Origin: an uncultured Actinomycetes bacterium
Lineage (GTDB): Bacteria; Actinomycetota; Acidimicrobiia; Acidimicrobiales; RAAP-2
DNA length: 15,255 bases
Assembly (NCBI GenBank): GCA_903871335.1
Contig: CAIQGE010000038.1
Span: forward strand, 1-15,255
Direction of reading: 5' to 3'
The notes below the pieces were generated by a model. It searched no databases, was not told the DNA's origin, and saw only the letters and a program-made list of their open reading frames with translations. Numbering within the stretch: position 1 is the stretch's first letter; each line of letters starts with the position of its first letter. Both the position numbers and the translations under genes were made by a program. Below, piece after piece: positions 249-14,063 of this stretch.

Positions 249-2123
249 TCAGGCCTTCGGGACCGCCGAGACCACGACAACCGAACTGGTGCCGGCGACA
301 TTGGTGGCTACCAACGTGATGTGCACCGCTACCTTGGCCGTCAACGCGCTGAAAGTGGCGCTCTTGGCCGAACTCGCTTCGTGGTACGTCTTCGTCGACT
401 TGCCCTGCTTCACGACGACGACGTAGGAACTCGCGGGACCGCCCGACGTAGCGGCCGTCCACTTGAGTGTCACAGACTTCACTCCACCGACCGCGCTGAC
501 GTGGGTGGGCGCCGCGGGCGCATTCACGGCGTTGAAAACAACCGCCGTGCCGGAAAGAACTTGGCCGTCATTACTGATCGAGGTCACCACGTAGGTGTAG
601 GACGTGCCTCCCATGACGGTGGTGTCCACGCAGGTGGTTGAGGAGGTGACGCAGACCGGCGTTCCCTCACCGGTTCGCTTCACGACGTAGGTCGAGATGC
701 CGGTTCCGATGATCGCGGGCGGGGCCCACGAGACGGTGGCACCGTGCGCGGAGGTTTGGGCGACGGTCACTTGCGTCACACCGTGGGGCAGCGCCATGTC
801 GTACTGCCCCACCACGGCCGCTTGCGCCCCGGATTGGTTGGAGACGTAGCCGGAGTACGTGCAGACGTAGGACGATACGCACGACAGCGTGTTGACGTAC
901 ATGTTCAAGGTGATTTGTCCGTCCAGGCCCGGAAGGACATCGGGGGTGTTCCACGCACCGTTGTCGTAGGTCCAAAAACCAGCGGCGTTCCCATTTGAAG
1001 AGGCGTAGTTTCCGGCAACGACACACGTGGTGGCACTGACACATGACAATGACGACGGCGTCTGGTTCACCGCGTTACTCGAATTCGGGCCGAGAGACTC
1101 CATTGCCGAGTTCCACTTCGTGCCGGTCATCGCGTCCACAAACGTCTCGGTGTACGGGAGGGGAGTGTGATTGTTGATGTAGCTGCCGGTGAGAAGACAC
1201 GATGTTGCGGAAAAGCACGTCGAGGAGAGGTGTCGGATAGCTGACGCGTTGCCGTTGGTCGTAGCGTCGCTCGGTAGAGGCAGGGCGACGGGAGTGCCGG
1301 GAACACCACTTGCGACCGGGATGACCATCGGAATTTCCAAGAAGCTGCCGGTCACGCGATATTCACCGAAGATGTTGCAGTCGGTGGTGTCCCAACAGGA
1401 GATCGAATAGGGAACCCAAAGGCCCGGGTCGAGGGAATTCGATGGTGCGGGCAGAACCTGGGGCGCGGCCCAACTCGTCCCGTTCCAAACGTCGTCGAAC
1501 GTCGCCACCGTGCTGTTCGCGGTGTCGTATTGACCAACGAGCAGGCAGAAGTTCGATGTCGTGCACTTGACGGTCAAGACATCACTGTGCGACGAGGAAC
1601 TCGCCGAGAGGTTGTTCGGGAGGGGCACATTCGTGACGAGCGCGTTGGGAATCCAGGCAATCGCGGCGGTCGTGGAAATTGTCAGAGTCGTGACGAAGGG
1701 GCGCAAACGTCCACCGGTGGTGTAACTACCGACCACCCAGCACGTGATGCCGGCGACGCACGAAATATCCGATGCCGTGACTGGGGTCGCGGTGGAGTTC
1801 GTCGCGTCGAGTGGACCTTCGATGCGCTGCGACGTCAGGACGCTGCCGTTGACGGTCACAACGACGTACGGCCTCGTGATGGCATTGGTGTCCTCGTAGG
1901 AGCCAATGGACATGCACGTCGAGTTGACGCACGACATCTTCGTCAACATTGCGTGGGAGTTGTCCGCTGCTCCACTCGGCAGCAAAGTCAGAGTGGGCAG
2001 GGATATCGTCCCGGTAGCGGCACCGGCACTGGTCACGACCGTGGCGCTCACGCCCGCGGCGAGCATCAGGCTCGCGGCGACGTAGCGCGTCAGACGACGT
2101 CGGATGGCGTATGACGTGTTCAT
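249..2123 (-). CDS. Secreted repeat protein: N-terminal signal peptide, seven ~45-55 aa blades each with a Cys pair (motif S-x-S-C-x4-6-C-x-[AV]-V-G-x-Y), and two C-terminal fibronectin-type-III-like domains. Likely cell-surface or extracellular beta-propeller plus Fn3 protein.
   Basis: The track ORF is 249..2219 (656 aa). An internal ATG at 2121..2123 is preceded by GGAGAAGATC and is followed by MNTSYAIRRRLTRYVAASLMLAAGVSATVVTSAGA, a typical Sec signal peptide. Seven motifs recur, including MSCVNSTCMSIGSY, ISCVAGITCWVVGSY, VKCTTSNFCLLVGQY, SISCWDTTDCNIFGEY, SSTCFSATSCLLTGSY, LSCVSATTCVVAGNY and LSCVSSYVCTYSGY. The C-terminus carries two Fn3-like modules (VSWAPP...YTYVVTSISNDGQVLSG and LKWTAAT...ITLVATNVAGTSS). 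Confidence 0.85.
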   Translation of the reverse strand: MNTSYAIRRRLTRYVAASLMLAAGVSATVVTSAGAATGTISLPTLTLLPSGAADNSHAMLTKMSCVNSTCMSIGSYEDTNAITRPYVVVTVNGSVLTSQRIEGPLDATNSTATPVTASDISCVAGITCWVVGSYTTGGRLRPFVTTLTISTTAAIAWIPNALVTNVPLPNNLSASSSSHSDVLTVKCTTSNFCLLVGQYDTANSTVATFDDVWNGTSWAAPQVLPAPSNSLDPGLWVPYSISCWDTTDCNIFGEYRVTGSFLEIPMVIPVASGVPGTPVALPLPSDATTNGNASAIRHLSSTCFSATSCLLTGSYINNHTPLPYTETFVDAMTGTKWNSAMESLGPNSSNAVNQTPSSLSCVSATTCVVAGNYASSNGNAAGFWTYDNGAWNTPDVLPGLDGQITLNMYVNTLSCVSSYVCTYSGYVSNQSGAQAAVVGQYDMALPHGVTQVTVAQTSAHGATVSWAPPAIIGTGISTYVVKRTGEGTPVCVTSSTTCVDTTVMGGTSYTYVVTSISNDGQVLSGTAVVFNAVNAPAAPTHVSAVGGVKSVTLKWTAATSGGPASSYVVVVKQGKSTKTYHEASSAKSATFSALTAKVAVHITLVATNVAGTSSVVVVSAVPKA

Positions 2124-2240: not shown

Positions 2241-3635
2241 CTACGCCGTTGGTGCGTCGTTTGACGTCACGGACCCTTGAGGCGGGGTCGGTGACGCGGC
2301 GGACGAGTTGGAGATCGTCGTGCTCGTGGCCGACACGCTCTTTCGCAGCGCGTCGTAGATCGTGAGACCTTGTCCGACGATGCCGGAGACAATTTCGGTG
2401 ACTCCTTCGGTGCCGTTGAGCACCGTGAGGTTAGAGCCCTTGATCCCCTCGGCCGCAGCGGTCACGAGTTCGGGCAGTGCGTCGATCAACTTGTTGGCGG
2501 CGATGAGTGCCTGATTGCCTTCAGAGAGAGCGTCGGCGCGCATGTTGATGGCGGCCGCTTCGGCCTCGGCGACCGTGCGCTCGGCGTACGCGTCACCGTC
2601 GGCCTCGTGCTTCTTCGCTTGTGCGTCGGCCTCGGCGCGAATCTTCTCGGCTTCGGCGTTGGCCTCGGCCAATTTACGCAGTCGGTTGGCCTCGGCTTCG
2701 GTCTGGTAGTTGACCGTGTCGCGGCCGGCTTCGGCGATGGTGCGCTGACGGAAGGCGTCCGCTTCGGTCTCGGCTTTCACGCGGTCACGATTCGCATCAG
2801 CGAGGGTACGCGTCTTGTAGGCCTCGGCGTCCGCGGGACGGCGAACTTCGGATTCGAGGCGCTTGTCGGTGAGCTCGGCTTCCTTCTCGGCGAGGATCGT
2901 TTGCTGGGAAATGACGTCCTGGGTCGCCCGGGCCTGCGAGAGAGGTCCGGCCTGGGCGGCCGCGGCCTTGGCTTCTTCGATCTCCGCGTTGAAGCCGGCG
3001 GTCTTGATCTCGGTGTCACGCATGTACTGAGCCTTTAACGCCGCGGCGGTCTGCTCCTGCTGGGTGGCTTCCTGGTCCGCCTTGGCGCTGGCGATACGAG
3101 CCTGCGACGCAATGGCCGCGGCGTGAGGCGCCGCGATGTTGTCGATATAACCGGAGGAGTCTTCGATCTCTTGAATTTGAATCGAGTCAACGACGATGCC
3201 GAGCTTCTCCATCTCGCCGTGGCTGCCGTCCTTCACCTCTTGAGCGAGACGGTCGCGCTCACGAATGATCTCCTCGACGGTCAACGATCCGATGATCGAG
3301 CGAAGGTGACCCGCGAAGATACGGCCCACGAGTTCTTCCATGTTGTTCTGCTCGGCCAAGAAACGTCGAGCGGCGTTCGCAATGGATGCGGCGTCGTCAC
3401 CGATCTTGAAGGCGGCAATGGCGCGCACGTGGAGACGGATTCCCTGGGTCGTGATGCACTCCTCCGTGATCTCGGACTCGCGCAGCGAGAGGGAAAGATA
3501 GCGGGCCTTTTGCTTGATCGGAATAACGAAGCAACCGTGGCCGGTGACGATGCGAAATTGCGTGTCCTGATCACCGCGACGGGATCCGGAAATGAGCAGC
3601 GCCTCGTTCGGGGCGGGAACGTACCAGAACAGCAT
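2241..3635 (-). CDS. Flotillin-like SPFH/band-7 domain protein (YqiK/FloT type). It has a long Ala/Glu/Lys-rich coiled-coil region and an unusual Ser/Thr/Pro-rich C-terminal tail.
   Basis: The track ORF is 2241..3761. An internal ATG at 3633..3635 is preceded by GAGGAGACATC, an SD 4 nt upstream. It is followed by MLFWYVPAPNEALLISGSRRG...FRIVTGHGCFVIPIKQ...LSLSLRE, the N-terminus typical of bacterial flotillins. The SPFH core is then followed by a long AEAEA/KAE-rich repeat region, as in flotillins. Confidence 0.85.
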   Translation of the reverse strand: MLFWYVPAPNEALLISGSRRGDQDTQFRIVTGHGCFVIPIKQKARYLSLSLRESEITEECITTQGIRLHVRAIAAFKIGDDAASIANAARRFLAEQNNMEELVGRIFAGHLRSIIGSLTVEEIIRERDRLAQEVKDGSHGEMEKLGIVVDSIQIQEIEDSSGYIDNIAAPHAAAIASQARIASAKADQEATQQEQTAAALKAQYMRDTEIKTAGFNAEIEEAKAAAAQAGPLSQARATQDVISQQTILAEKEAELTDKRLESEVRRPADAEAYKTRTLADANRDRVKAETEADAFRQRTIAEAGRDTVNYQTEAEANRLRKLAEANAEAEKIRAEADAQAKKHEADGDAYAERTVAEAEAAAINMRADALSEGNQALIAANKLIDALPELVTAAAEGIKGSNLTVLNGTEGVTEIVSGIVGQGLTIYDALRKSVSATSTTISNSSAASPTPPQGSVTSNDAPTA

Positions 3636-3651: not shown

Positions 3652-3870
3652 TCAGTACGGCGTGACGAGAACGGTGCGACCAGAAATGATCTCCACGACG
3701 ACGACGCGGGAGTTCTTCGTGATCTCCTCGTCCGCCAGGGCCTGATAGGCCTCGACGCCACCGCGAATGGGAATCATGACTTCGCCAGGGCGACCGTCAC
3801 TGATGGGGACCGACACACGGCCAATAGCGCCAACGACTTCTTGGCTCAATTCTTCCGACATGTTGGCCAA
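3652..3870 (-). CDS. Short NfeD-like protein containing only the C-terminal OB-fold beta-barrel, immediately upstream of the flotillin gene (nfeD-floT operon arrangement). No N-terminal membrane segment is present.
   Basis: The 72-aa ORF ends in the ...RVVVVEIISGRTVLVTPY beta-barrel motif typical of NfeD-short (YuaF-like) proteins. A TTG start at 3868..3870 is directly preceded by AAGGAGAT; the ATG three codons in is an alternative start. The gene ends 14 bp before the flotillin start. The yuaF-yuaG/nfeD-floT operon pairing is established knowledge. Confidence 0.6.
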   Translation of the reverse strand: MANMSEELSQEVVGAIGRVSVPISDGRPGEVMIPIRGGVEAYQALADEEITKNSRVVVVEIISGRTVLVTPY

Positions 3871-3924
3871 ATCTCCTTATATTGCTAAGCACCAACGTAG
3901 CCGTCCATCTTCCTTTGGGGCAAG

Positions 3925-3936
3925 GGTGAATTCACC
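3925..3936. promoter_or_regulatory. 12-bp perfect palindrome GGTGAATTCACC in the putative promoter region about 55 bp upstream of the nfeD-floT operon. Candidate operator for a dimeric regulator.
   Basis: Seen directly in the sequence. Its reverse complement is identical to itself. It lies in the 306-bp non-coding gap upstream (minus strand) of the nfeD start. Confidence 0.3.
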
Positions 3937-4176
3937 TCATAAACGGTCTCGAGTTCCGTCGCACCGACTCGAAGTGAAAGTGGCGAGTACGACGACAGTC
4001 ATCGAGTTGACGAGGCGATTGAAATCAGCGCGTCGCGCAGGAGGATTCCCGGACCGAAGGGTTCTGTGGCGTCGGTCGGTCCGCTGATGTCGAAGGTTCG
4101 CGATACCAGCAACGAGGGCGGGTGCCCATCACCTTCGGAACGTTTGGGAGGTGATTTATGGCTGCTGGCTTATGGT

Positions 4177-4458
4177 CTATTTGTCACGAGACCTTCGGAA
4201 GAGCGCGAGCATGACTCCGATCCATAGCGTTAGTGCACTCAGCCACAGCCATCCGGGTGCGTCGAGAACACTTGCGGCGTCAGCGGGTCGGCTGCAGGTT
4301 GAACCGTGACACGCGGACGAGAACGGTGAGATCAATTCGTGGTCGTAGTGATGAAGTGACTTTCCAATGGCGACGACCAGGACGAAGAGGACACATCCCC
4401 AGACGATTGAACACGCCGCGCGAACCATTAAGCGAGCCCGCGCCGCGTTCATGCTCAC
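4177..4458 (-). CDS. Small hypothetical membrane protein with two predicted TM helices and a Cys-containing loop (CHGSTC). It sits 48 bp downstream of the secreted BNR-propeller gene and may be co-transcribed with it.
   Basis: The 93-aa ORF has two hydrophobic stretches (SIVWGCVLFVLVVAIG and WLWLSALTLWIGVMLALF). It has a GTG start with a weak SD; an ATG two codons downstream is an alternative start. I recognise no homology. Confidence 0.3.
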   Translation of the reverse strand: MSMNAARARLMVRAACSIVWGCVLFVLVVAIGKSLHHYDHELISPFSSACHGSTCSRPADAASVLDAPGWLWLSALTLWIGVMLALFRRSRDK

Positions 4459-4506
4459 AAATATATGGACGCCCGCGACTGCAGTCTCTTACATACCGTC
4501 CGCGAT

Positions 4507-5649
4507 CTAGTGGGGCGTACCGCTCTGGGACCACGTGGAACCGGAATTGCGTGAGATCAAGGTTGTCGGGTGATACGGATCATTTCCAATGTCGCCCACC
4601 GCGATGCACGTTGGCAATTGGGCGCACGACAGACCGTTGATGTCCGCGAGATGAGGGGTCGTAACAACGCCGAAATGGACACCATTGCCACTTCCCAAGA
4701 ACTGGGTCAAGTCGGCGTACGACGTTGAAGCGGAATATCCGGTCGCGAAGCAGTGAGCGGCGCCCCAACAACCCACCCAGGCCAGTTGGTCAACGTCACG
4801 GGCGACGGGAACGCTCTTGAAGATTGATCCCGAGACCGTTGACAAGTACGCCACCGACGAAGCGAGGGAAGCGGACACGCCCACCTCGACGCAAAATGCA
4901 GCAGTGACGCACGTGGCACTGGTCAGCATTGAGGCGTGGACGAGGTCGTCGTGATCTAACCACGTGGCACCCCGGTCGGTGGTGGTGGACATGGCGCCCA
5001 CCTGTCCCGATATCTGACCATCCGCACCGACGAGAAGACAGCTTCCTGACGGCAGGCACGACACGCTTTCGGCGATGGAAATATTGAAGGGCAGCGTCTG
5101 GCTGTGCCACGTCTTCCCGCCGTCGAGACTTTGCAGTTCAACACCCGACGTGATCAAGGAGCCGTCGGTGGTTGGCACGTAGTGGAGTCCGGAGGCTTGA
5201 CACCAGGTCGGTGTCGGGCAGGTCACCGAGAGCAGCTTGGAGGCGATCGCGGGAACGGCCACGCGGTGCCAGGTTGCGCCGCCGTCGGCGCTGAGGATAA
5301 TGACACCAGCGGTCACCTTGGTGTTGTAGCCAACGGCGACACACGTCGTGCGGGACGCACACGCCACCGCACTGAATCCACCGGCTCCGGCGGGCACCGT
5401 GACACGCGCCCACGATGCTGAATGATCTTTCGACCGGTAGATGGCGGTACCGGAATTCGATGAGAGACCCACCTGTGCACCGCTCGCGAGGCAGTCAGTA
5501 GTTGACGGGCAGGCGATGGATGTCATGGTGCCATCGAGGGGTGCGACACGCGGTGCGACCGATCTCGCGGTGGCGGCGCCCGACGCAAAGTTCGCGGACG
5601 CGGCTACCGCCAGTATGAGAATTCCCGCCAACCATTTCAATCGCTGCAT
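4507..5649 (-). CDS. Secreted seven-bladed BNR (Asp-box) beta-propeller-like protein. Each blade carries both a Cys pair (S-x-x-C-x5-C-x-A-x-G) and an Asp-box-like motif (S-x-D-G-G-x-T-W). It has a Ycf48-like or sialidase-like propeller architecture.
   Basis: The track ORF is 4507..5733. An internal ATG at 5647..5649 is preceded by GAGGGAGCTTGCA and starts MQRLKWLAGILILAVAASANFASGAATA, a signal peptide. Seven Cys-pair motifs are present: SIACPSTTDCLASG, VACASRTTCVAVG, SVTCPTPTWCQASG, SVSCLPSGSCLLVG, SATCVTAAFCVEVG, VGCWGAAHCFATG and LSCAQLPTCIAVG. Asp-box-like motifs are SADGGATW, SLDGGKTW, TTDRGATW and SRNSGSTW. Confidence 0.8.
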   Translation of the reverse strand: MQRLKWLAGILILAVAASANFASGAATARSVAPRVAPLDGTMTSIACPSTTDCLASGAQVGLSSNSGTAIYRSKDHSASWARVTVPAGAGGFSAVACASRTTCVAVGYNTKVTAGVIILSADGGATWHRVAVPAIASKLLSVTCPTPTWCQASGLHYVPTTDGSLITSGVELQSLDGGKTWHSQTLPFNISIAESVSCLPSGSCLLVGADGQISGQVGAMSTTTDRGATWLDHDDLVHASMLTSATCVTAAFCVEVGVSASLASSVAYLSTVSGSIFKSVPVARDVDQLAWVGCWGAAHCFATGYSASTSYADLTQFLGSGNGVHFGVVTTPHLADINGLSCAQLPTCIAVGDIGNDPYHPTTLISRNSGSTWSQSGTPH

Positions 5650-5779: not shown

Positions 5780-6301
5780 TCAGTGAGGCGACGTCGTCGA
5801 TGCGCGTCGTGTCGCTCCGCGACCCGGTCGAACAGTCACGTCACGAACGGTGAGGTCGTGTCCTTCCGTGCACCGCACAGAAACGGTTACCGCCGACCCG
5901 CAGGCGCTGTGTGATAACTCGACCGGCGGACCCTCGGGAGCGAGCCACTTGTCGCCCCATTGCATGAGGGCAACGACCGGGACGAAGGCGTCGCGACCCA
6001 TGTCGGTAAGTCGGTAGGCGAGCCTTTCCCGATCGCCGGCGTCTTGGTACGGCACGCGCGTGAGAAGTCCTTCTTCGACGAGGTGTCGTAGTTCATTCGC
6101 GACGACCGGTTCACTCAGTCCCGTCCGCCGAACGAATTCGTCAAAACGCGTGCTTCCGTAATACGCCTCGCGCAGAAGCAACATGTTCGAGCGCTTCCCG
6201 ATCAACTTGACGGCACGGTCCATCGAGCACGCCGCAGCCGACCAGGCGTCGCGATCGTGCAGGGCAGTGGTGAAGCGAACACGGTCGGGTGTGTCAGACA
6301 T
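5780..6301 (-). CDS. HxlR-family (DUF24/MarR-like winged-helix) transcriptional regulator. It has an N-terminal Cys in the position of the redox-sensing Cys of YodB/HypR-type members and an unusual ~55-aa C-terminal extension.
   Basis: The sequence ...AACSMDRAVKLIGKRSNMLLLREAYYGSTRFDEFVRRTGLSEPVVANELRHLVEEGLLTR... is the hallmark HxlR HTH region. The track ORF starts at TTG 6308..6310. I prefer the ATG at 6299..6301 (MSDTPDR), which has TAGGAGAT about 10 nt upstream. The gene is divergent from the MFS gene with only ~40 bp between the start codons. Confidence 0.8.
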   Translation of the reverse strand: MSDTPDRVRFTTALHDRDAWSAAACSMDRAVKLIGKRSNMLLLREAYYGSTRFDEFVRRTGLSEPVVANELRHLVEEGLLTRVPYQDAGDRERLAYRLTDMGRDAFVPVVALMQWGDKWLAPEGPPVELSHSACGSAVTVSVRCTEGHDLTVRDVTVRPGRGATRRASTTSPH

Positions 6302-6341: not shown

Positions 6342-7766
6342 ATGGAAAGCCTAAGTCATCCGCAGGATCGACCGCGAGCGGTACTGATCGTTCTGTGCGC
6401 CGCCGCCTTCATGGCGTCACTCGATTTGTTCATCGTCAATGTGGCCTTCACCAGTATTGGGCACGACTTCCATCAGCACACGTACGCGAACTTGAGCTGG
6501 ATCCTCAACGGTTACGCCATCATCTATGCCGCTCTCCTCATCCCACTGGGGCGACTCGCCGATCGCTACGGACTGAAGGCTGGATTCCTGCTCGGACTCG
6601 GTGTCTTCACGGCGGCGAGCGTCGGGTGCGCGTTGAGTGGATCGCTATGGATCCTGGTGGGCTTTCGAGTCCTGCAAGCCACGGGAGCCGCCGCGCTCAC
6701 GCCCACGAGTCTCGGGCTTCTTCTGAACGCGTATCCGGCCGAGAAGAGGTCGGGTGCCGTTCGTATCTGGTCCGCCGTCAGCGCCATGGCCGCTGCCATC
6801 GGTCCTGTCATGGGTGGCGTTCTCGTACAGCACTCCTGGCGCTGGGTATTCCTCGTCAATCTGCCGCTGGGCATCGTTGCGCTGATCGCTGCGATCATCG
6901 TTGTTCCCGACCACAAGAACACGACTGAAAGCTTGTTGCCCGACCTCGTGGGGGCCGTGGTTCTCGCGGTGGCCATTGGCGCATTGGCGCTGGGTCTCGT
7001 GAAGGCGCCGGCGTGGGGCTGGACGTCACAGCACACCATCGTGTCCTTCGCCGTCTCCTTCGGCGGGATCATTGTGTTCGCCCTTCAAAGCCGTCGTCAT
7101 CCGGCCCCGGTGATTGATCCCGTCTTACTGAAAGTTCGGACATTTTCGTGGGCCAATGCGACGAGCCTTATGTTCGCCGTGGCGTTCGCGTCGAATCTCC
7201 TGATCGCCATCTTGTGGATGCAGAACATCTGGCACTTCTCGCCGGTTCGGACAGGACTGTCGGTGGCCCCAGGACCATTGATGGTTCCCGGGTTCGCGAT
7301 CTTGGGCGGTCATTTCGTTCGCCGGTATGGTCCCGGACTAGTGACGACCGCCGGTTGTGTGTGCTTCGCCTGCGGCGTCGGGCTCTCGCAATTGCTGTTG
7401 GGCTCCTCGCCGCAGTACTTTTCCGAGATGTTCCCCGCGCAGATCATCACCGGCATCGGCGTCGGCCTCGCGCTGCCCACGATTCTGTCGTCGGCCACGG
7501 CTGATCTTCCTCTCGCCAGGTCCGCGACCGGGAGCGCGATTGTCAACATGAGTCGTCAGATCGGCAGCGTGATCGGTGTGAGTGTGTTGATCGCGTTACT
7601 CGGTACGCCCACCACCTACGCGGCTGCCGCACGTGGCTTCCAACACGCGCGCCTTGCCTGCATTATCGCGGCGCTCGTGGCCGCACTGACGGCGGTCGGA
7701 ATGACCTCGAAGACGTGGTCCAGGATCCCACGCACCGAATCGATGGTGGCCGAGGTGTCCTTGTGA
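6342..7766 (+). CDS. Major facilitator superfamily transporter. Its 14-TMS DHA2 (EmrB/QacA-like) topology suggests a drug or metabolite:H+ antiporter.
   Basis: The track ORF is 6183..7766. The ATG at 6342 (MESLSHPQDRPRAVLIVLCAAAFMASLDLFIVNVAF) lies ~14 aa before TMS1, as is usual. The MFS signature GRLADRYGLK and many hydrophobic helices are present. The stop TGA is immediately followed by cgATG of the next gene. Confidence 0.85.
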   Translation: MESLSHPQDRPRAVLIVLCAAAFMASLDLFIVNVAFTSIGHDFHQHTYANLSWILNGYAIIYAALLIPLGRLADRYGLKAGFLLGLGVFTAASVGCALSGSLWILVGFRVLQATGAAALTPTSLGLLLNAYPAEKRSGAVRIWSAVSAMAAAIGPVMGGVLVQHSWRWVFLVNLPLGIVALIAAIIVVPDHKNTTESLLPDLVGAVVLAVAIGALALGLVKAPAWGWTSQHTIVSFAVSFGGIIVFALQSRRHPAPVIDPVLLKVRTFSWANATSLMFAVAFASNLLIAILWMQNIWHFSPVRTGLSVAPGPLMVPGFAILGGHFVRRYGPGLVTTAGCVCFACGVGLSQLLLGSSPQYFSEMFPAQIITGIGVGLALPTILSSATADLPLARSATGSAIVNMSRQIGSVIGVSVLIALLGTPTTYAAAARGFQHARLACIIAALVAALTAVGMTSKTWSRIPRTESMVAEVSL

Positions 7767-7768
7767 CG

Positions 7769-8560
7769 ATGGGGTCTTTCGCCCGCGCGACGGCAGTGAC
7801 CTTTCGTGATGGACGTTACGAAGGAGAGATTCAGCCCCGATGGGACATCGCCGGTGACGCGAATGGTGGCTACCTCATGGCGATTGTCGCTCGAGCATTG
7901 TTGGACATGACGAGTCGAAGTGATCCCATCACGGTGACCGCTCACTTCTTGTCTCCTGGTCGTCCAGGTCGGGTGAGCATCGAAACGCACGAGGTCAAGT
8001 CCGGACGTCGGTTCGCCACGGCCACCGCGACGCTGCACAGTGAGGATCGTCCACTTCTCACGGTGTTGGGCACTTTTGGAGACCTACGGGAGACGAGTGT
8101 CCCGTTACGCGTTGACGGGACGCCGCCTGACGTACCTCCCCTCGACGAGTGCGTTCCCGTGATTGCCACCGAGACTTTTCCGCCTCCCTTCATGGGTCAA
8201 GTGGAACTTCGACTCCACCCAGACCAGGACCTCTCACCTCGTGCTCGATCCATCGGCAAGTCGGAGATCTCCGGTTGGTTTCGCTTGCGTGACGACGAGG
8301 AGATCACGACCACCGCGTTGCTGTGTGCGCTAGACGCTTTTCCGCCCACGATCTTCAACACCGATCTTCCGGTGGCGTGGACACCGACCATCGAACTCAC
8401 CGCACACCTGCGAGCTCGTCCCGTCCCCGGCTGGTTGCGATGTCGCTTTACGACGCGATTCATTACCGCCGGCATGCTCGAAGAAGACGGTGAGATTTGG
8501 GACGAGAGCGGCACCCTGGTGGCTCAGTCACGGCAGTTAGCACTGGTCCCACAGTCGTGA
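7769..8560 (+). CDS. Thioesterase-superfamily protein: a TesB-like double hot-dog acyl-CoA thioesterase family member.
   Basis: MGSFARATAVTF...WDIAGDANGGYLMAIVARAL... resembles the N-terminus of thioesterase-like double hot-dog proteins. The gene is 263 aa, the right size. The start ATG at 7769 is coupled to the MFS stop (TGAcgATG). The alternative GTG at 7715 would overlap the MFS gene by 52 bp. Confidence 0.65.
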   Translation: MGSFARATAVTFRDGRYEGEIQPRWDIAGDANGGYLMAIVARALLDMTSRSDPITVTAHFLSPGRPGRVSIETHEVKSGRRFATATATLHSEDRPLLTVLGTFGDLRETSVPLRVDGTPPDVPPLDECVPVIATETFPPPFMGQVELRLHPDQDLSPRARSIGKSEISGWFRLRDDEEITTTALLCALDAFPPTIFNTDLPVAWTPTIELTAHLRARPVPGWLRCRFTTRFITAGMLEEDGEIWDESGTLVAQSRQLALVPQS

Positions 8561-8686: not shown

Positions 8687-9478
8687 ATGTTGACTCTCGA
8701 GAGAGTCGACGCCACGATTTTCCGCGGACAAAATGGTCCCGCGAGCCCGCGGCAGGCCCTTTACGGTGGCCAAGTGGCGGCGCAGTGCTTGATGGCGGCG
8801 GCGGCGACGGTGCCCGAAGGTAGATCTCCTCACTCACTGCACGGCTACTTCCTGCGACCGGGATCCGTCGACTTACCCGTCGTCATGGAAGTGGACCTCG
8901 ACCGTGATGGTCGAAGTTTCTCCGCTCGCCACGTCAACGCTCTCCAGAACGGGAAAGTGATCTTCTCGATGGTGGCCTCTTTTCACGAAGAGCGCCCGGA
9001 ACCTTCCTTTGACGCCGCGCCACGGCGAGAGGTTCCCGAGCCCAAGAAGGATCCGTCGTCGCACAGCTGGAACACGATCATCGACGTGATGGACGTCACG
9101 CCGTTCGACCTCGCGACCGGACGGTTCCCGGACTGTATGTGGGTCAAGACGACCGATCCTTTACCGAACGACCCCATCATGAATGCGGGTGCCTTGGTCT
9201 TCCTCTCGGATCTTGGTTCAGGTTTCGGGCAGGTAGATGCGGGACTTTCGGGACGCGGGGGTCCCAGCATCGATCACGCGATGTGGTTCCAGGAACCCAT
9301 TCGGGCCGATGAGTGGGTTCTCCTCGACCTCATTCCCGTCAAGGCATGGTCGGCGCGCGGGACCTATCACGGCTCGCTTCGCGATCAGAGCGGACGCCTC
9401 GGAGCCACGGTGTACCAGGAACATCTTCTGCTCCCCATGTCGGCACTTCGGCCTACTTCCCCGAGCCCAAACCCATAG
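8687..9478 (+). CDS. tesB: Acyl-CoA thioesterase II (TesB).
   Basis: MLTLERVDATIFRGQN...PRQALYGGQVAAQCLMAA...HSLHGYFLRPG...VDLDRDGRSFSARHVNALQNGKVIFSMVASFH aligns by eye with the E. coli TesB N-terminal hot-dog domain (LLTLLNLEKIEEGLFRGQS...FGGQVVGQAL...HSFHSYFLRPG...[21 protein letters not shown]). The start could alternatively be GTG 8661, which sits after GGGAGGAAC. Confidence 0.85.
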   Translation: MLTLERVDATIFRGQNGPASPRQALYGGQVAAQCLMAAAATVPEGRSPHSLHGYFLRPGSVDLPVVMEVDLDRDGRSFSARHVNALQNGKVIFSMVASFHEERPEPSFDAAPRREVPEPKKDPSSHSWNTIIDVMDVTPFDLATGRFPDCMWVKTTDPLPNDPIMNAGALVFLSDLGSGFGQVDAGLSGRGGPSIDHAMWFQEPIRADEWVLLDLIPVKAWSARGTYHGSLRDQSGRLGATVYQEHLLLPMSALRPTSPSPNP

Positions 9479-9597: not shown

Positions 9598-11934
9598 ATG
9601 CAAGCCACCCGACCACTACTTAGATTCGGGCTGTGTACCGCGCTTGTGGTTTCAATCGGAACATTCGCGCTGACGCTGTCGGCAAGCGCGGTTCCCACTA
9701 GCTACTTGCCGCTTTACGGCACGACCGTGCCGGCCTCGTCGGCCACAACGGGAACCGGACAATTGAGTTCGATTAGTTGTGTGGACGCCACGCATTGTGA
9801 ATCGGTTGGCCTCTACGCAACGAACAACACTGGACCGCTGGGTGTCTACGCCCAGAGCATCGTCGCGGGAGTTGCCGGAACCCCGACGGCTCTTGCGTCG
9901 GGCGCGGATGATGCCAGTACGGCGCCTTCGATTTCCTGCTTTGACGCGAACGATTGTGTCGCTGTATTCGCCGTTGGTTCCGGCACCACCGCGACGACTG
10001 ACGTCGCCACGGAAACTTCAGGCTCGTGGTCAGTGACTTCGCCCTTCAGCGCACAAACTTTGGCGCAGGGAATTTCGTGCGTTGCGGCCTCGTCATTTTG
10101 CGCGGTCGTAGGTGAGTTGACGAACTCCAACCGTGCTTTCGGTGTCACCTTGTCCGCCGGCGCTTGGGGGACGATGCAGACCATTAATGACGTAGGTTCC
10201 CCGACGCACTCCACTGACTTGGTCAGTGTGTCGTGTTGGAGTGTTGGTAATTGCATGGCCGCGGGAAATTTCAATGTGGGAGCACCTTCGTATTTCGGAC
10301 GGTCTCCATTCGTTGCTGGACTGTCCAGCGGTTCGTGGATCGCAACACCTGGCGGCGGTTCCAATTCAGGCACCAATTCGTCGAGCTACAACTCGATTTC
10401 CTGTCCCTCCGCGACAACCTGTTTGACCGCTGGCACGTCTAATGGCATTGCGTTCACCCAAGAGTTCTACGGAACTCGCTGGTATTCGATAGATCTCGTT
10501 CAGCTGCCTACGAATTCGTACGTTCTATCCAACGCTTCGAGCGTGTCGTGCGTCGATGCGAGCGATTGCGTCGTCGTCGGTTCGTATCAAACTCAAACGC
10601 TGGGCGAACAAGCCTTCTATGGTTCAGACTCCATTACCAACGGCGATCTCAATGGCAATGTCCATGCAAATGTTGTCACCTCGCCTTATTCCGGCACCAT
10701 TGACCCCGTGGGCGTTCAGGCCTACTTGAATTCCGTTTCGTGTCCTTCGACATCGAATTGTGAGTTTGTGGGTAGTTACAACACGGACATCAATAGCGAT
10801 CCCACCCTGCCGGCATTTGGTGGTTCAGGAACGCCTCCTCCGAGCGCGCCGACCTCCCTGTCAGCCCTGCCCGGGAATCACTCGATCACGGTGTCCTGGT
10901 CCGCTCCGCTAGCGAATGGAAGTCCGAGCCCCACGAGTTACACGGCGTACGCCGGATCGAATTCGTGCACGACCAAGGGCCTCAGCTGTACGGTCACCGG
11001 TCTTATCAACGGCCAGACGTATCAAGTCACGGCTGCTGCTTCGAACGCCAAGGGTCAAGGGCCCGTTGCGGACGCAATCTCAGGATTTGCTGCCGGAGTT
11101 CCCGACCCGCCCACTGTCGTCTCGGTGGTACCGGGAGCGAAGTCCGCGCTCGTGACGATCGCTCCTCCGGCAAATAACAACGGCGCGCCAGTGACGAGCT
11201 ACACCTATTACTGGGCGGTTGGATCAAAGGTAACGATGGCGGGTTCCATCACTGGTCTGTCGTGGGATCTCGCTGGACTACCAAACGGCGCGACCGTTAG
11301 TTTCTACGCCACGGCGACGAATGTCACCGGTGCGAGCGCGCCGGCAACGCCCGTGACCGTCACGTTGCCCGAGCTAGCTGGTGCGCCCACCAACGTGGTA
11401 GCTATTGGAGCGGCGTCGACAATCACGGTGAGTTGGAACGCCAGTACCTTGGGCGCCACGGCGACCAGTTACACGGCGACCGCTACCGAACCTTCATTTG
11501 AGGGGTCTGGTTCTTTCACCTGCACAACTACAACAACCACTTGCACGATTACGGGTCTCGGCCTCCACAAGTCATTTTCTGTGACCGTCGCGGCGAACAA
11601 TGCCGTTGGGTCGAACGCGTCGAACAGCGTGCAGACATTTACAACCACCTCTCCAGTCGGGCCCCCTGGTGCAGTGACGGCTCTGACGGCGAAGGGCAGC
11701 AAGACCTCAATTGCCTTGAAGTGGAAGGCACCCAAGAATCACGGCGCGGGTATTGGGAATTACATCGTCTACGAGTACGTGAGTTCTGCCTGGGTGCAGG
11801 TGGCCACACCCGTCCTTGCGAATGTCAGTATTTCAAAGCTGTCGTCAAAGACGAGCTACAAGTTTGAGGTCGTGTCCTACGCGATGGACGGTCAAACTTC
11901 CAAGCCCGTCACCGTATCCAGCAAAACAACCTGA
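9598..11934 (+). CDS. Secreted repeat protein: signal peptide, seven Cys-pair blades (C-x5-6-C) and four tandem fibronectin-type-III domains. It is a paralog of the 249..2123 and 4507..5649 products.
   Basis: The ATG at 9598 is preceded by GGAGATAAAT. The signal peptide is MQATRPLLRFGLCTALVVSIGTFALTLSASA. First Cys of the pairs fall at aa 61, 114, 161, 213, 269, 318 and 382, a period of ~47-64 aa. Motifs include SISCVDATHCESVG, SISCFDANDCVAV, ISCVAASSFCAVVG, VSCWSVGNCMAAG, SISCPSATTCLTAG, SVSCVDASDCVVVGSY and SVSCPSTSNCEFVGSY. Four ~90-aa Fn3-like modules run from about nt 10850 to the stop. Confidence 0.9.
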   Translation: MQATRPLLRFGLCTALVVSIGTFALTLSASAVPTSYLPLYGTTVPASSATTGTGQLSSISCVDATHCESVGLYATNNTGPLGVYAQSIVAGVAGTPTALASGADDASTAPSISCFDANDCVAVFAVGSGTTATTDVATETSGSWSVTSPFSAQTLAQGISCVAASSFCAVVGELTNSNRAFGVTLSAGAWGTMQTINDVGSPTHSTDLVSVSCWSVGNCMAAGNFNVGAPSYFGRSPFVAGLSSGSWIATPGGGSNSGTNSSSYNSISCPSATTCLTAGTSNGIAFTQEFYGTRWYSIDLVQLPTNSYVLSNASSVSCVDASDCVVVGSYQTQTLGEQAFYGSDSITNGDLNGNVHANVVTSPYSGTIDPVGVQAYLNSVSCPSTSNCEFVGSYNTDINSDPTLPAFGGSGTPPPSAPTSLSALPGNHSITVSWSAPLANGSPSPTSYTAYAGSNSCTTKGLSCTVTGLINGQTYQVTAAASNAKGQGPVADAISGFAAGVPDPPTVVSVVPGAKSALVTIAPPANNNGAPVTSYTYYWAVGSKVTMAGSITGLSWDLAGLPNGATVSFYATATNVTGASAPATPVTVTLPELAGAPTNVVAIGAASTITVSWNASTLGATATSYTATATEPSFEGSGSFTCTTTTTTCTITGLGLHKSFSVTVAANNAVGSNASNSVQTFTTTSPVGPPGAVTALTAKGSKTSIALKWKAPKNHGAGIGNYIVYEYVSSAWVQVATPVLANVSISKLSSKTSYKFEVVSYAMDGQTSKPVTVSSKTT

Positions 11935-12242: not shown

Positions 12243-14063
12243 GTGTCCCTTTCAGTCTTGCGAACCGTACGTCGAGGAGTTCTTGCGGGATCTCTGCTTC
12301 TCGGTACCACACTCCTAGCGGCAGGAGAGGCTGCCGCTAGCGCGCCAACCTTTACCACGATCGCACAACTCCCTACTGCGATCGACAGTCATAACGAGTC
12401 CTTTGAATTTCACCCAGCTTTTCTTCCCAACGGACAACTGGCAGTCTTCGATACGTTCTTGAACACGATCTCGGTGATGAACGCGGACGGCACAGATCAG
12501 CAACCGATTGCAAGCTTGCCGCTCAATGTCGACGGATCGAACTTGATCTACGACACGTCATTGAAGGCACTGGCAATTGTTGCGGACCGGCCGACTATTT
12601 CTTCGACGCTTGAACTCTTCTCTCCCTCAGGAAGTCTGCTGGCCTCCTTGGACGTCTCCAGCACGGTGCAGAACGTCACGTCACTGGCCCAAGGTCCCGG
12701 TGGTGAAGTGCTCCTCGGTTCCACGACAGGCCTTTACGGCGTGAACGTACAAATGTCGTCAAGTTCACCCGCCGTCTACTCCCTCGGTAACTCGAACAAC
12801 ATTGCGAGTGGCCCTGTCACCGGTGCGGCCGCTACCTCGACGGACATTTTCGTCTGTACCACGGGGGCGATGCAGGAGTACACGGTGTCGGGTTCATTCG
12901 TAACGAATATTTCGGGGAACTCCGGTTGCTCGTCGCCGACGATTGACGGTGGCAGTCTGCTTGATTTCGCGGGGAGCACGACAATGCTCTTTACCCAAAA
13001 TCTTCAGAGCATGTCCATGTCGACCTTCGCGACCTCGACTCTGGCAACACTCGGTTACCAGTACGCACCCGGTTTCACGACGGGTTCGTACGAAGATCTT
13101 GCTGTCATGCCGAGCAACGTCGTTGGCGGCACGCCCGGTGGGTTGATTTTGTCGGAGTTGAATACCCAATCCATTCCGAACTCCGCGGGTCGTGCTCTCT
13201 TGCCACTCTTGTACGCCACCAATGCTTCGGGCGCGCTGGGTAGCTACAAGTGCATCGCGGTTGCCAGCACACCAAATGATCTTCGCTACGTCAACGTGAT
13301 TGCGAATCCGGTGGCAAATACCTTCGATTTCGTTGACCAATGGGGTGGCACAGTGACGCAGGTGTCATCTTCGGGCGCGCAAGCCACCAATATCATCTAC
13401 AACTACCGCGCACCTGATCTGCTGTCAACGGATCAGTTCGGTTATTACCCCGTTTCCGCGGCGATCGACGCGAAGAAGAAGTACCTGTTCACGCTCGACG
13501 CTATGAACCGTGTTCGACGATTTGCGTCAACTGGTGGGTCGGGCCTGCAGGGAGCGCTGCTGGCGACGCGTCAGGTCGCGGGGAGTCCGGGAAGCACCGT
13601 TCCGTTGCTCGCTACTTCTCTCGCTGTGAACAATTCCTTGGTCTACCTGGGATTCAACAATGATGTGTATTCCGAAACAGAGACGGGTAGTGCGCCGAAG
13701 CGTGTGCTCGCTGCTCCTCAATACGACACGATTGCCAGTATGAAGTCGGGGCCGAACGGCGACTTGTTGATCACCGCGACCGGTGCAGTGCCCGAACTCT
13801 ACGTGTACTCCTCAACCGGAAAACTGGTGAAGTCGATCAAGTGGTCGTTCGGGGAACCCGCGTCATCTGACATTGACAGTTCCGGTCACGTCTGGATTGT
13901 TTCTTCTACGGGCGATCTGTACGAGTCAACGTTGACGAGCTCAAGAGTGACGAAAGTTACAACCGGCAACTTCACGGATGTCGCGACGAGTTCGAACGGA
14001 ACGATCATGCTCGTTGAGCCCACCACAGTGGTCGCAACAACGGCGGTGCAACTCGGCCTGTAG
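12243..14063 (+). CDS. Secreted hypothetical repeat protein, probably a beta-propeller-like fold. Cys-poor, with an N-terminal signal peptide and a possible twin-arginine motif.
   Basis: The GTG start at 12243 is preceded by the strong SD GAGGAGG with a 5-nt spacer. The N-terminus MSLSVLRTVRRGVLAGSLLLGTTLLAAGEAAASA has an RR-x-V-L pattern followed by a hydrophobic stretch and an ASA cleavage site. Degenerate repeats such as GDLLITATG...LYVYSSTGKL and GHVWIVSSTGDLYES resemble NHL/YVTN-type blades. The ORF is 606 aa. Confidence 0.75.
   Translation: MSLSVLRTVRRGVLAGSLLLGTTLLAAGEAAASAPTFTTIAQLPTAIDSHNESFEFHPAFLPNGQLAVFDTFLNTISVMNADGTDQQPIASLPLNVDGSNLIYDTSLKALAIVADRPTISSTLELFSPSGSLLASLDVSSTVQNVTSLAQGPGGEVLLGSTTGLYGVNVQMSSSSPAVYSLGNSNNIASGPVTGAAATSTDIFVCTTGAMQEYTVSGSFVTNISGNSGCSSPTIDGGSLLDFAGSTTMLFTQNLQSMSMSTFATSTLATLGYQYAPGFTTGSYEDLAVMPSNVVGGTPGGLILSELNTQSIPNSAGRALLPLLYATNASGALGSYKCIAVASTPNDLRYVNVIANPVANTFDFVDQWGGTVTQVSSSGAQATNIIYNYRAPDLLSTDQFGYYPVSAAIDAKKKYLFTLDAMNRVRRFASTGGSGLQGALLATRQVAGSPGSTVPLLATSLAVNNSLVYLGFNNDVYSETETGSAPKRVLAAPQYDTIASMKSGPNGDLLITATGAVPELYVYSSTGKLVKSIKWSFGEPASSDIDSSGHVWIVSSTGDLYESTLTSSRVTKVTTGNFTDVATSSNGTIMLVEPTTVVATTAVQLGL

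Follow-up and report, generated by a model that had tools for sequence, protein, structure and literature searches.

How does a protein repeat that carries a pair of cysteines in every unit, and that matches no family model, relate to the known beta-propellers? The question is raised by a 15,255-nucleotide (nt) stretch of DNA from an uncultured actinomycete of the order Acidimicrobiales (contig CAIQGE010000038.1 of assembly GCA_903871335.1), referred to as the window throughout, which encodes three proteins with such repeats: the 380-residue product of gene B and its two larger, Fn3-bearing paralogs A and C. The key to the repeat is gene B, whose product is probably a Sec-exported, single-domain, seven-bladed propeller of the BNR/Asp-box superfamily (Ycf48-like branch) with a disulfide in each blade, predicted to act as a non-catalytic extracellular binding scaffold.

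The reading frame of gene B can be taken as real because a Shine-Dalgarno sequence (GAGGGAG) lies 7 nt upstream of its ATG start at 5649 and because a 380-aa protein identical to the B translation has been called on at least 19 metagenome contigs. The same two observations make a longer, GTG-started open reading frame (ORF) reaching to 5733 an unlikely candidate for the product. The leader (Table 1) contains no lipobox cysteine, and confidence in the structural model (predicted local distance difference test, pLDDT) is low over residues 1-30. All 14 cysteines of B fall into seven C-x5-C pairs, spaced 47-54 residues apart, and the protein contains five Asp-box-like motifs, two of them of the strict form, whose Trp always lies 24-31 residues past the second Cys. 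Blades 5 and 6 have no Asp-box, with SGSIF and GNGVHF in its place. The combined pattern is far beyond chance: across 20,000 sequence shuffles, 0.007 Asp-box-like motifs were expected (maximum 1) against 5 observed, and 0.48 C-x5-C pairs (maximum 4) against 7 observed. The first-pass annotation, made from the DNA letters alone, had seen an Asp-box next to each cysteine element; the four motifs that it quoted are all present, but only five of the seven blades carry one, the fifth being the degenerate SKDHSASW.

An AlphaFold2 model of B was built from alignment A1, which comprises B and 32 homologues (33 sequences). It has 28 strands, i.e. seven times four (mean pLDDT 82, predicted template modelling score (pTM) 0.83), and on this model B is a seven-bladed propeller, with a single propeller filling the whole protein. 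According to DSSP, every Asp-box of the model lies in the loop that leads from strand 3 to strand 4 of its four-stranded blade, while the first Cys of each pair is the final residue of strand 1 and the second the initial residue of strand 2. In propeller blades, the Asp-box standardly makes up the hairpin that joins strands 3 and 4 (PMC2716378), and the modelled motifs thus occupy the canonical loop position. There they would form a hairpin at the outer rim of each blade, as in sialidases and Ycf48. The idea that the segment bracketed by the cysteines corresponds to the W-a-V-G strand of BNR blades needs to be shifted slightly, as the five bracketed residues make up the turn between strands 1 and 2, and it is the x-A-V-G directly after the second Cys that aligns with W-a-V-G. 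In alignments to Cys-free relatives, the first Cys takes the column of the F that closes strand 1 and the second that of the G (or I) which directly precedes the W.

Homology searches with B and its relatives point in the same direction. Matches of B to the Pfam models Sortilin-Vps10, BNR, BNR_2 and PSII_BNR range from E 1.6e-7 to 7e-5, and at E ~1e-5 NCBIfam offers Ycf48 and the 'F510_1955 family glycosylhydrolase', both far below their cut-offs. A single-sequence search with B among 5.8 billion proteins found 40 relatives, mostly annotated with Pfam BNR or PSII_BNR and in several cases carrying the Joint Genome Institute (JGI) name 'photosystem II stability/assembly factor-like uncharacterized protein'; the nearest homologue (P0002) is above the cut-off for all four BNR-type Pfam models. 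Three of the proteins found with B (P0036, P0039 and P0040; E 8e-5 to 8e-4) are ordinary BNR propellers without C-xn-C pairs, and P0036 has no cysteine at all. A scan of a genome collection with B alone as query returned no relative. When the A1 profile was compared with the PDB, Ycf48 came out on top (8am5_S, E 1.5e-9; also 5oj3 and 2xbg), followed by GH74 enzymes and sialidases, and Foldseek with the B model likewise placed Ycf48 first (5ojr, E 6.6e-12) before GH74, sortilin and sialidases. The best homology of B is thus, as had been proposed, to BNR proteins and not to an unrelated fold, and both the profile and the model comparisons support its membership in the BNR/Asp-box superfamily, in the Ycf48-like branch.

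Ycf48/HCF136 (PSII_BNR PF14870; PDB 2xbg, 5ojr, 8am5) is, like B, a single seven-bladed Asp-box propeller of ~330 residues, and its blade consensus, f-x5-G-W-a-v-G...G-t-i-l-x-T-x-D-G-G-x-T-W, aligns blade for blade with B. However, Ycf48 has no cysteine pairs, and B has lost two Asp-boxes. B was rejected as a Ycf48 equivalog (25.3 bits against a cut-off of 326 for NCBIfam PRK13684). Ycf48 occurs in oxygenic phototrophs alongside photosystem II (PSII), where a conserved arginine patch binds the C-terminus of D1; such a role in PSII/D1 binding was rejected for B as well, given that its host appears to be a non-phototrophic member of the Acidimicrobiales. The evidence on the host is indirect: its flotillin gene best matches Acidimicrobiales and Actinomycetota, and neither the 15-kb window nor the examined 20.7 kb of locus L001 contains photosynthesis genes. 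Sortilin/Vps10 proteins were set aside as well, being ten-bladed with a 10CC module, whereas B has seven blades and no such C-terminal module, and the Sortilin-Vps10 match is confined to positions 2-67 of a profile with 446.

GH33 sialidases and GH74 xyloglucanases (PMC2716378; Quistgaard and Thirup 2009) share with B the Asp-box in the strand 3-4 blade hairpin along with the profile and fold matches, which raises the question of whether B could itself be an enzyme, sialidase-like or another glycoside hydrolase, to which the cysteine staples merely add stability. We consider this quite unlikely. The family profile does match GH74 xyloglucanases and GH33 sialidases, the model of paralog A matches many GH33 sialidases, and the 'F510_1955 family glycosylhydrolase' model is hit at E 1e-5, but the latter with a score of 24.9 against a cut-off of 175. 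GH33 enzymes are six-bladed and carry a RIP/Arg triad and a Tyr-Glu nucleophile, whereas B has seven blades and its sequence contains no RIP motif; GH74 enzymes need two tandem seven-bladed propellers to form the catalytic cleft, and B has only one. Moreover, the sole (nearly) invariant columns of A1 are Cys, Gly, Trp and Pro, and no Arg, Asp, Glu or Tyr column is conserved, although the lack of conserved polar residues in a repeat alignment at 25% identity is weak evidence against catalysis. B would rather work as a stable, disulfide-hardened extracellular binding scaffold, in line with the first-pass annotation; this is the weakest step of the proposed mechanism.

The cysteine pairs are likely to be disulfide staples. 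The element C-x4-6-C-x-[AV]-[VA]-G is located at the strand 1-2 turn in seven of seven B blades, and across 227 family proteins 2865 of 2867 blades retain both Cys, a count obtained with a Cys-weighted blade hidden Markov model (HMM) that finds only Cys-bearing blades, so that blades without both Cys would be missed. Among the best 150 of 106,148 relatives found with the A1 profile, a median of 96% of all cysteines sit in C-xn-C pairs. Aerobic Actinobacteria have exported proteins with a bias towards even cysteine numbers, which are oxidised by Dsb-like enzymes (PMC2823432). Since all 14 cysteines of B are paired and conserved, a signal peptide is present and the phylum oxidises its exported proteins, the pairs probably become oxidised after export. 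The cysteine closing strand 1 and the one opening strand 2 would then most likely form one disulfide per blade, and the resulting seven disulfides would each clamp one of the inner hairpin turns and replace the F...G-W packing of Cys-free relatives.

From the general topology of propellers, the inner hairpin turns are expected to encircle the central tunnel at one of its mouths, all on one face. Seven extremely conserved cysteine pairs on one face near the axis might also be read as metal ligands or as a redox-active array of thiol pairs around the tunnel mouth, although the model itself fixes strand positions only. We regard such an array as very unlikely, given that B has a signal peptide, that exported cysteines are oxidised in its phylum (PMC2823432), that accompanying His, Asp or extra Cys ligands are absent and that the pair replaces the F and G packing residues at the base of the hairpin, the classic place for a staple.

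Besides the limits of the column conservation and of the blade HMM given above, several points weigh against B being a disulfide-stapled BNR scaffold. B remains under all four Pfam cut-offs (Sortilin-Vps10 30.9 against 33, BNR 25.1 against 27, BNR_2 24.6 against 31.4 and PSII_BNR 22.6 against 27), and the turn drawn by DSSP in four of the blades has 2 residues, which would place the two Cys diagonally, slightly out of register. Further, homologues of B, A, C and ORF D (the ORF behind paralog C) are absent from the flotillin loci L004-L010, and a ligand, a partner or a conserved neighbourhood was not found.

Can paralogs A and C be placed in the same superfamily? The propeller part of each contains seven C-x4-6-C pairs and zero Asp-boxes; the two proteins resemble each other (BLASTP E 9e-19) and are ~22-28% identical to B. 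Neither propeller has a Pfam or NCBIfam family match, none of the 24 members of the paralog family (alignment A2) matches a BNR-type Pfam model, and the A2 profile finds nothing among PDB sequences at E <= 1. Foldseek with the AlphaFold2 model of the A propeller (pLDDT 87.7, pTM 0.90) listed CylK first, followed mostly by GH33 sialidases.

The connection is provided by the B-type proteins. In hhalign comparisons, the Cys-free Ycf48-like pair P0039/P0040 matched the 26 A1 members of pure Asp-box type (probability 99.4%, E 5.2e-22), in an alignment that runs over 282 columns and keeps the seven blades in register, and the Asp-box-bearing members of A1 in turn matched A2 (probability 99.8%, E 9.7e-30), while the Cys-free pair had no match to A2 (E 0.3). 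With all cysteines masked to X in both alignments, the match between Asp-box-only A1 and A2 still reached a probability of 98.4% (E 4.7e-15); complete A1 against A2 gave E 8.9e-41, a value to which a few A2-like sequences included in A1 may contribute. Because the Cys-free set matches the B-type proteins and these match A2, whereas the Cys-free set has no match to A2, the B-type family is, by these profile comparisons, a genuine bridge that transitively connects a repeat not classifiable in any other way to the standard BNR propellers. This agrees with the initial suggestion that the 380-aa type links the Cys-pair repeat to BNR proteins and that the repeat is a cysteine-bearing offshoot of BNR/Asp-box propellers, for which loop position and homology both speak. 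A convergent resemblance, i.e. an independent propeller lineage with chance Asp-box-like turns (Asp-boxes are known in other folds), is highly improbable and largely refuted, since the Cys-free match spans the whole blade in all seven blades, including a-V-G of strand 2, i-l-x-T of strand 3 and the W-x5-P segment and not the turn alone, and the match between B-type and paralog families persists with every Cys masked.

The first-pass annotation had further read A and C as paralogs in which the Asp-box has decayed. In the blade HMM, the remnants VWNGTSW, TGTKW, DNGAW, SGSW, GAW and GTRW of A and C do share columns with the Asp-box of B. However, A and C are degenerate members of an old sister branch with its own W-[ND]-G-x-x-W motif rather than decayed copies of B; of this motif, one W-N-G-x-x-W is left in A and none in C. 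As the Asp-box also occurs in Cys-free outgroups, parsimony suggests that it is the ancestral state and the W-N-G form a derived one. A and C would carry the same stapled propeller in an Asp-box-less form, on Fn3 stalks.

Outside their propellers, the two paralogs show some peculiarities of their own. Pfam fn3 matches three stretches of the Fn3-like repeats of C. The Fn3 parts contain C-x6-C pairs as well (CVTSSTTC in A; CTTKGLSC and CTTTTTTC in C), and from these motifs the habit of stapling hairpins seems to extend beyond the propeller into the Fn3 domains. The leader of A (window positions 2030-2123, reverse strand) reads MNTSYAIRRRLTRYVAASLMLAAGVSA and has an RRR stretch, perhaps that of a twin-arginine (Tat) signal. 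Such a signal would be surprising in a protein whose seven disulfides are expected to form only once it has been exported.

How special is B? Its description as a hybrid did not stand, because within its large clade the combination of Cys pair and Asp-box is the rule. Each blade of the A1 consensus has the form V-x-C-x5-C-x-A-V-G ... T-x-D-G-G-x-x-W, and four or more Asp-boxes accompany 4-14 Cys pairs in 26 of the 33 A1 members, 24 of which have at least six pairs. The family to which B itself belongs (uncharacterised proteins of Actinomycetota and Chloroflexota, such as P0002, P0004 and P0013, that are called 'photosystem II stability/assembly factor-like') has C-x5-C-x-A-V-G elements in common with it, 7 or 14 in the relatives, with an Asp-box after each; identity to B is 25-29%, with E down to 6e-36. 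Most P0002-type relatives have 6-7 Asp-boxes per propeller and are above the Pfam cut-offs, whereas B has 4-5 and is just below. The W-[ND]-G-x-x-W propellers (A and C as well as P0045, P0064 and P0085) share with B the C-x5-C-x-A-V-G staple, the blade length, G-x-x-W and W-x5-P, but they differ in lacking the Asp-box and any Pfam, NCBIfam or PDB sequence match and in often having at least 14 blades or being fused to Fn3/Ig domains. Judged by these motifs, B counts as a somewhat eroded member of the Asp-box type, and A and C eroded members of the W-[ND]-G-x-x-W type.

The family is also very large and, so far, unstudied. In an exhaustive search among 1.84 billion cluster representatives, the A1 profile matched 106,148 at E <= 1e-3, 55,937 at E <= 1e-10 and 17,785 at E <= 1e-30, numbers that include Cys-free BNR proteins, as the profile matches these too; Cys-pair content was inspected in the top 150 matches. 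All of these 150 have at least six C-xn-C pairs, and many have 14 blades or more; the division into types is sharp, as 64 are of the Asp-box type and 81 of the W-[ND]-G-x-x-W type, with a single mixed one (P0130). This protein of 1814 aa combines 3 Asp-box and 18 W-N-G-x-x-W blades with Fn3 and PhoD_N-like domains, is the sole mixer among more than 200 proteins inspected and may be a true mosaic or an intermediate. Many of the 150 (P0075-P0224) are 650-760 aa long with exactly 14 Cys pairs, corresponding to two tandem seven-bladed propellers, and thereby share size and architecture with GH74 enzymes.

In databases, the sampled relatives are named only 'hypothetical protein' or 'photosystem II stability/assembly factor-like'. 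A description of cysteine-stapled BNR blades was not found in literature searches on Ycf48/Asp-box propellers (with disulfides or Actinobacteria) and COG4447, and where large surveys cover repetitive propellers (PMC9218822), the Asp-box group is mentioned but the words 'cysteine' and 'disulfide' do not occur. What is new here is the staple in each blade and an Asp-box-less sister branch without a family model, while B as such adds a new member to a known superfamily. A more far-reaching version would see in the Cys-stapled propellers of Actinomycetota and Chloroflexota an exported superfamily that is essentially undescribed and very large, numbering tens of thousands of clusters at 50% identity, whose W-[ND]-G-x-x-W half has no family model and is placed only via the B-type, and whose disulfide-clamped ring of loops is a new ligand-binding or redox-sensing surface and not merely a device for stability; taken as a whole, we consider it unlikely.

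The bridge through B classifies, by homology, a very abundant and unannotated repeat, the Cys-pair W-N-G-x-x-W propellers. Since the B-type profile matches more than 100,000 cluster representatives, a dedicated model would annotate many 'hypothetical proteins' in actinomycetotal metagenomes from soil and freshwater. Moreover, these propellers would offer a clean natural case of a repeat fold that trades the F...G-W packing of a hairpin for one disulfide per blade in an oxidising extracytoplasmic setting. This might be of interest for propeller evolution and protein design, even though the variation on a known fold is modest and will not surprise the specialist, and it has no bearing yet on physiology.

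Table 1. Positions of gene B, its predicted parts and neighbouring features in the window (+, forward strand; -, reverse strand; aa, residues of the B protein in the blade rows)
Feature	Position	Strand	Description
Gene B	4507-5649	-	380 aa, predicted exported seven-bladed Asp-box/BNR beta-propeller; stop codon 4507-4509
B signal peptide	5578-5649	-	~residues 1-24, MQRLKWLAGILILAVAASANFASG; typical Sec type, read from the sequence, cleavage site approximate
Blade 1	5383-5532	-	aa 40-89; Cys47/Cys53; degenerate Asp-box SKDHSASW (73-80)
Blade 2	5242-5382	-	aa 90-136; Cys97/Cys103; standard Asp-box SADGGATW (120-127); best stretch of Pfam BNR 119-129
Blade 3	5080-5241	-	aa 137-190; Cys144/Cys150; standard Asp-box SLDGGKTW (174-181)
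Blade 4	4933-5079	-	aa 191-239; Cys198/Cys204; Asp-box TTDRGATW (223-230)
Blade 5	4792-4932	-	aa 240-286; Cys247/Cys253; Asp-box lost (STVSGSIF)
Blade 6	4648-4791	-	aa 287-334; Cys294/Cys300; Asp-box lost (GSGNGVHF)
Blade 7	4510-4647	-	aa 335-380; Cys342/Cys348; Asp-box SRNSGSTW (366-373)
Paralog A	249-2123	-	624 aa; the signal peptide is followed by a seven-bladed Cys-pair propeller lacking Asp-boxes (~nt 804-1961) and by two Fn3 domains
Paralog C	9598-11934	+	778 aa; the signal peptide is followed by a seven-bladed Cys-pair propeller lacking Asp-boxes (~nt 9745-10797) and by four Fn3-like repeats
Flotillin gene	2241-3635		Downstream of B
Small ORF	3652-3861		69 aa; next called gene after the B stop, then flotillin
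HxlR-family regulator	5780-6301	-	130 nt upstream of B, same strand
MFS transporter	6342-7766	+	Divergent pair with the HxlR gene, ~40 nt apart
Acyl-CoA thioesterase II-like gene 1	7763-8560	+	4HBT_3 domain; 265 aa in the L001 gene call; shares 4 nt with the end of the MFS gene
Acyl-CoA thioesterase II-like gene 2	8687-9478	+	4HBT_3 domain; 263 aa as called on L001; in tandem with gene 1
ORF D	12243-14063	+	606 aa; signal peptide; directly downstream of paralog C

The window has a G+C content of ~60% and is identical to several ENA metagenome contigs. Its flotillin gene is ~77-82% identical to genes in metagenome-assembled genomes (MAGs) of Acidimicrobiales and Actinomycetota, which in this analysis was the sole basis for assigning the host, and flotillin identity across loci L004-L010 (MAGs of Acidimicrobiales, Acidothermaceae and Frankiales; Kitasatospora) is 65-82%. 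As the neighbourhood of B is not conserved, no operon-based functional inference was drawn, and the propeller genes look like lineage-specific accessory genes.

A conserved two-gene module, in which each Fn3-bearing paralog is followed by a related partner, was considered and rejected: BLASTP found no similarity between ORF D and the 622-aa NHL-repeat protein encoded after A, outside the window (L001 15107-16975). ORF D looks rich in Ser/Thr and in beta structure and has no Pfam or NCBIfam match. Between the stop codon of B and the small 69-aa ORF lies a gap of 645 nt (3862-4506) with only Pfam-less ORFs. No intrinsic terminators were predicted around B, this gap included, and the window has no Rfam matches. 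On the other side of B, the position and strand of the HxlR-family regulator gene suggest that the two could be co-regulated.

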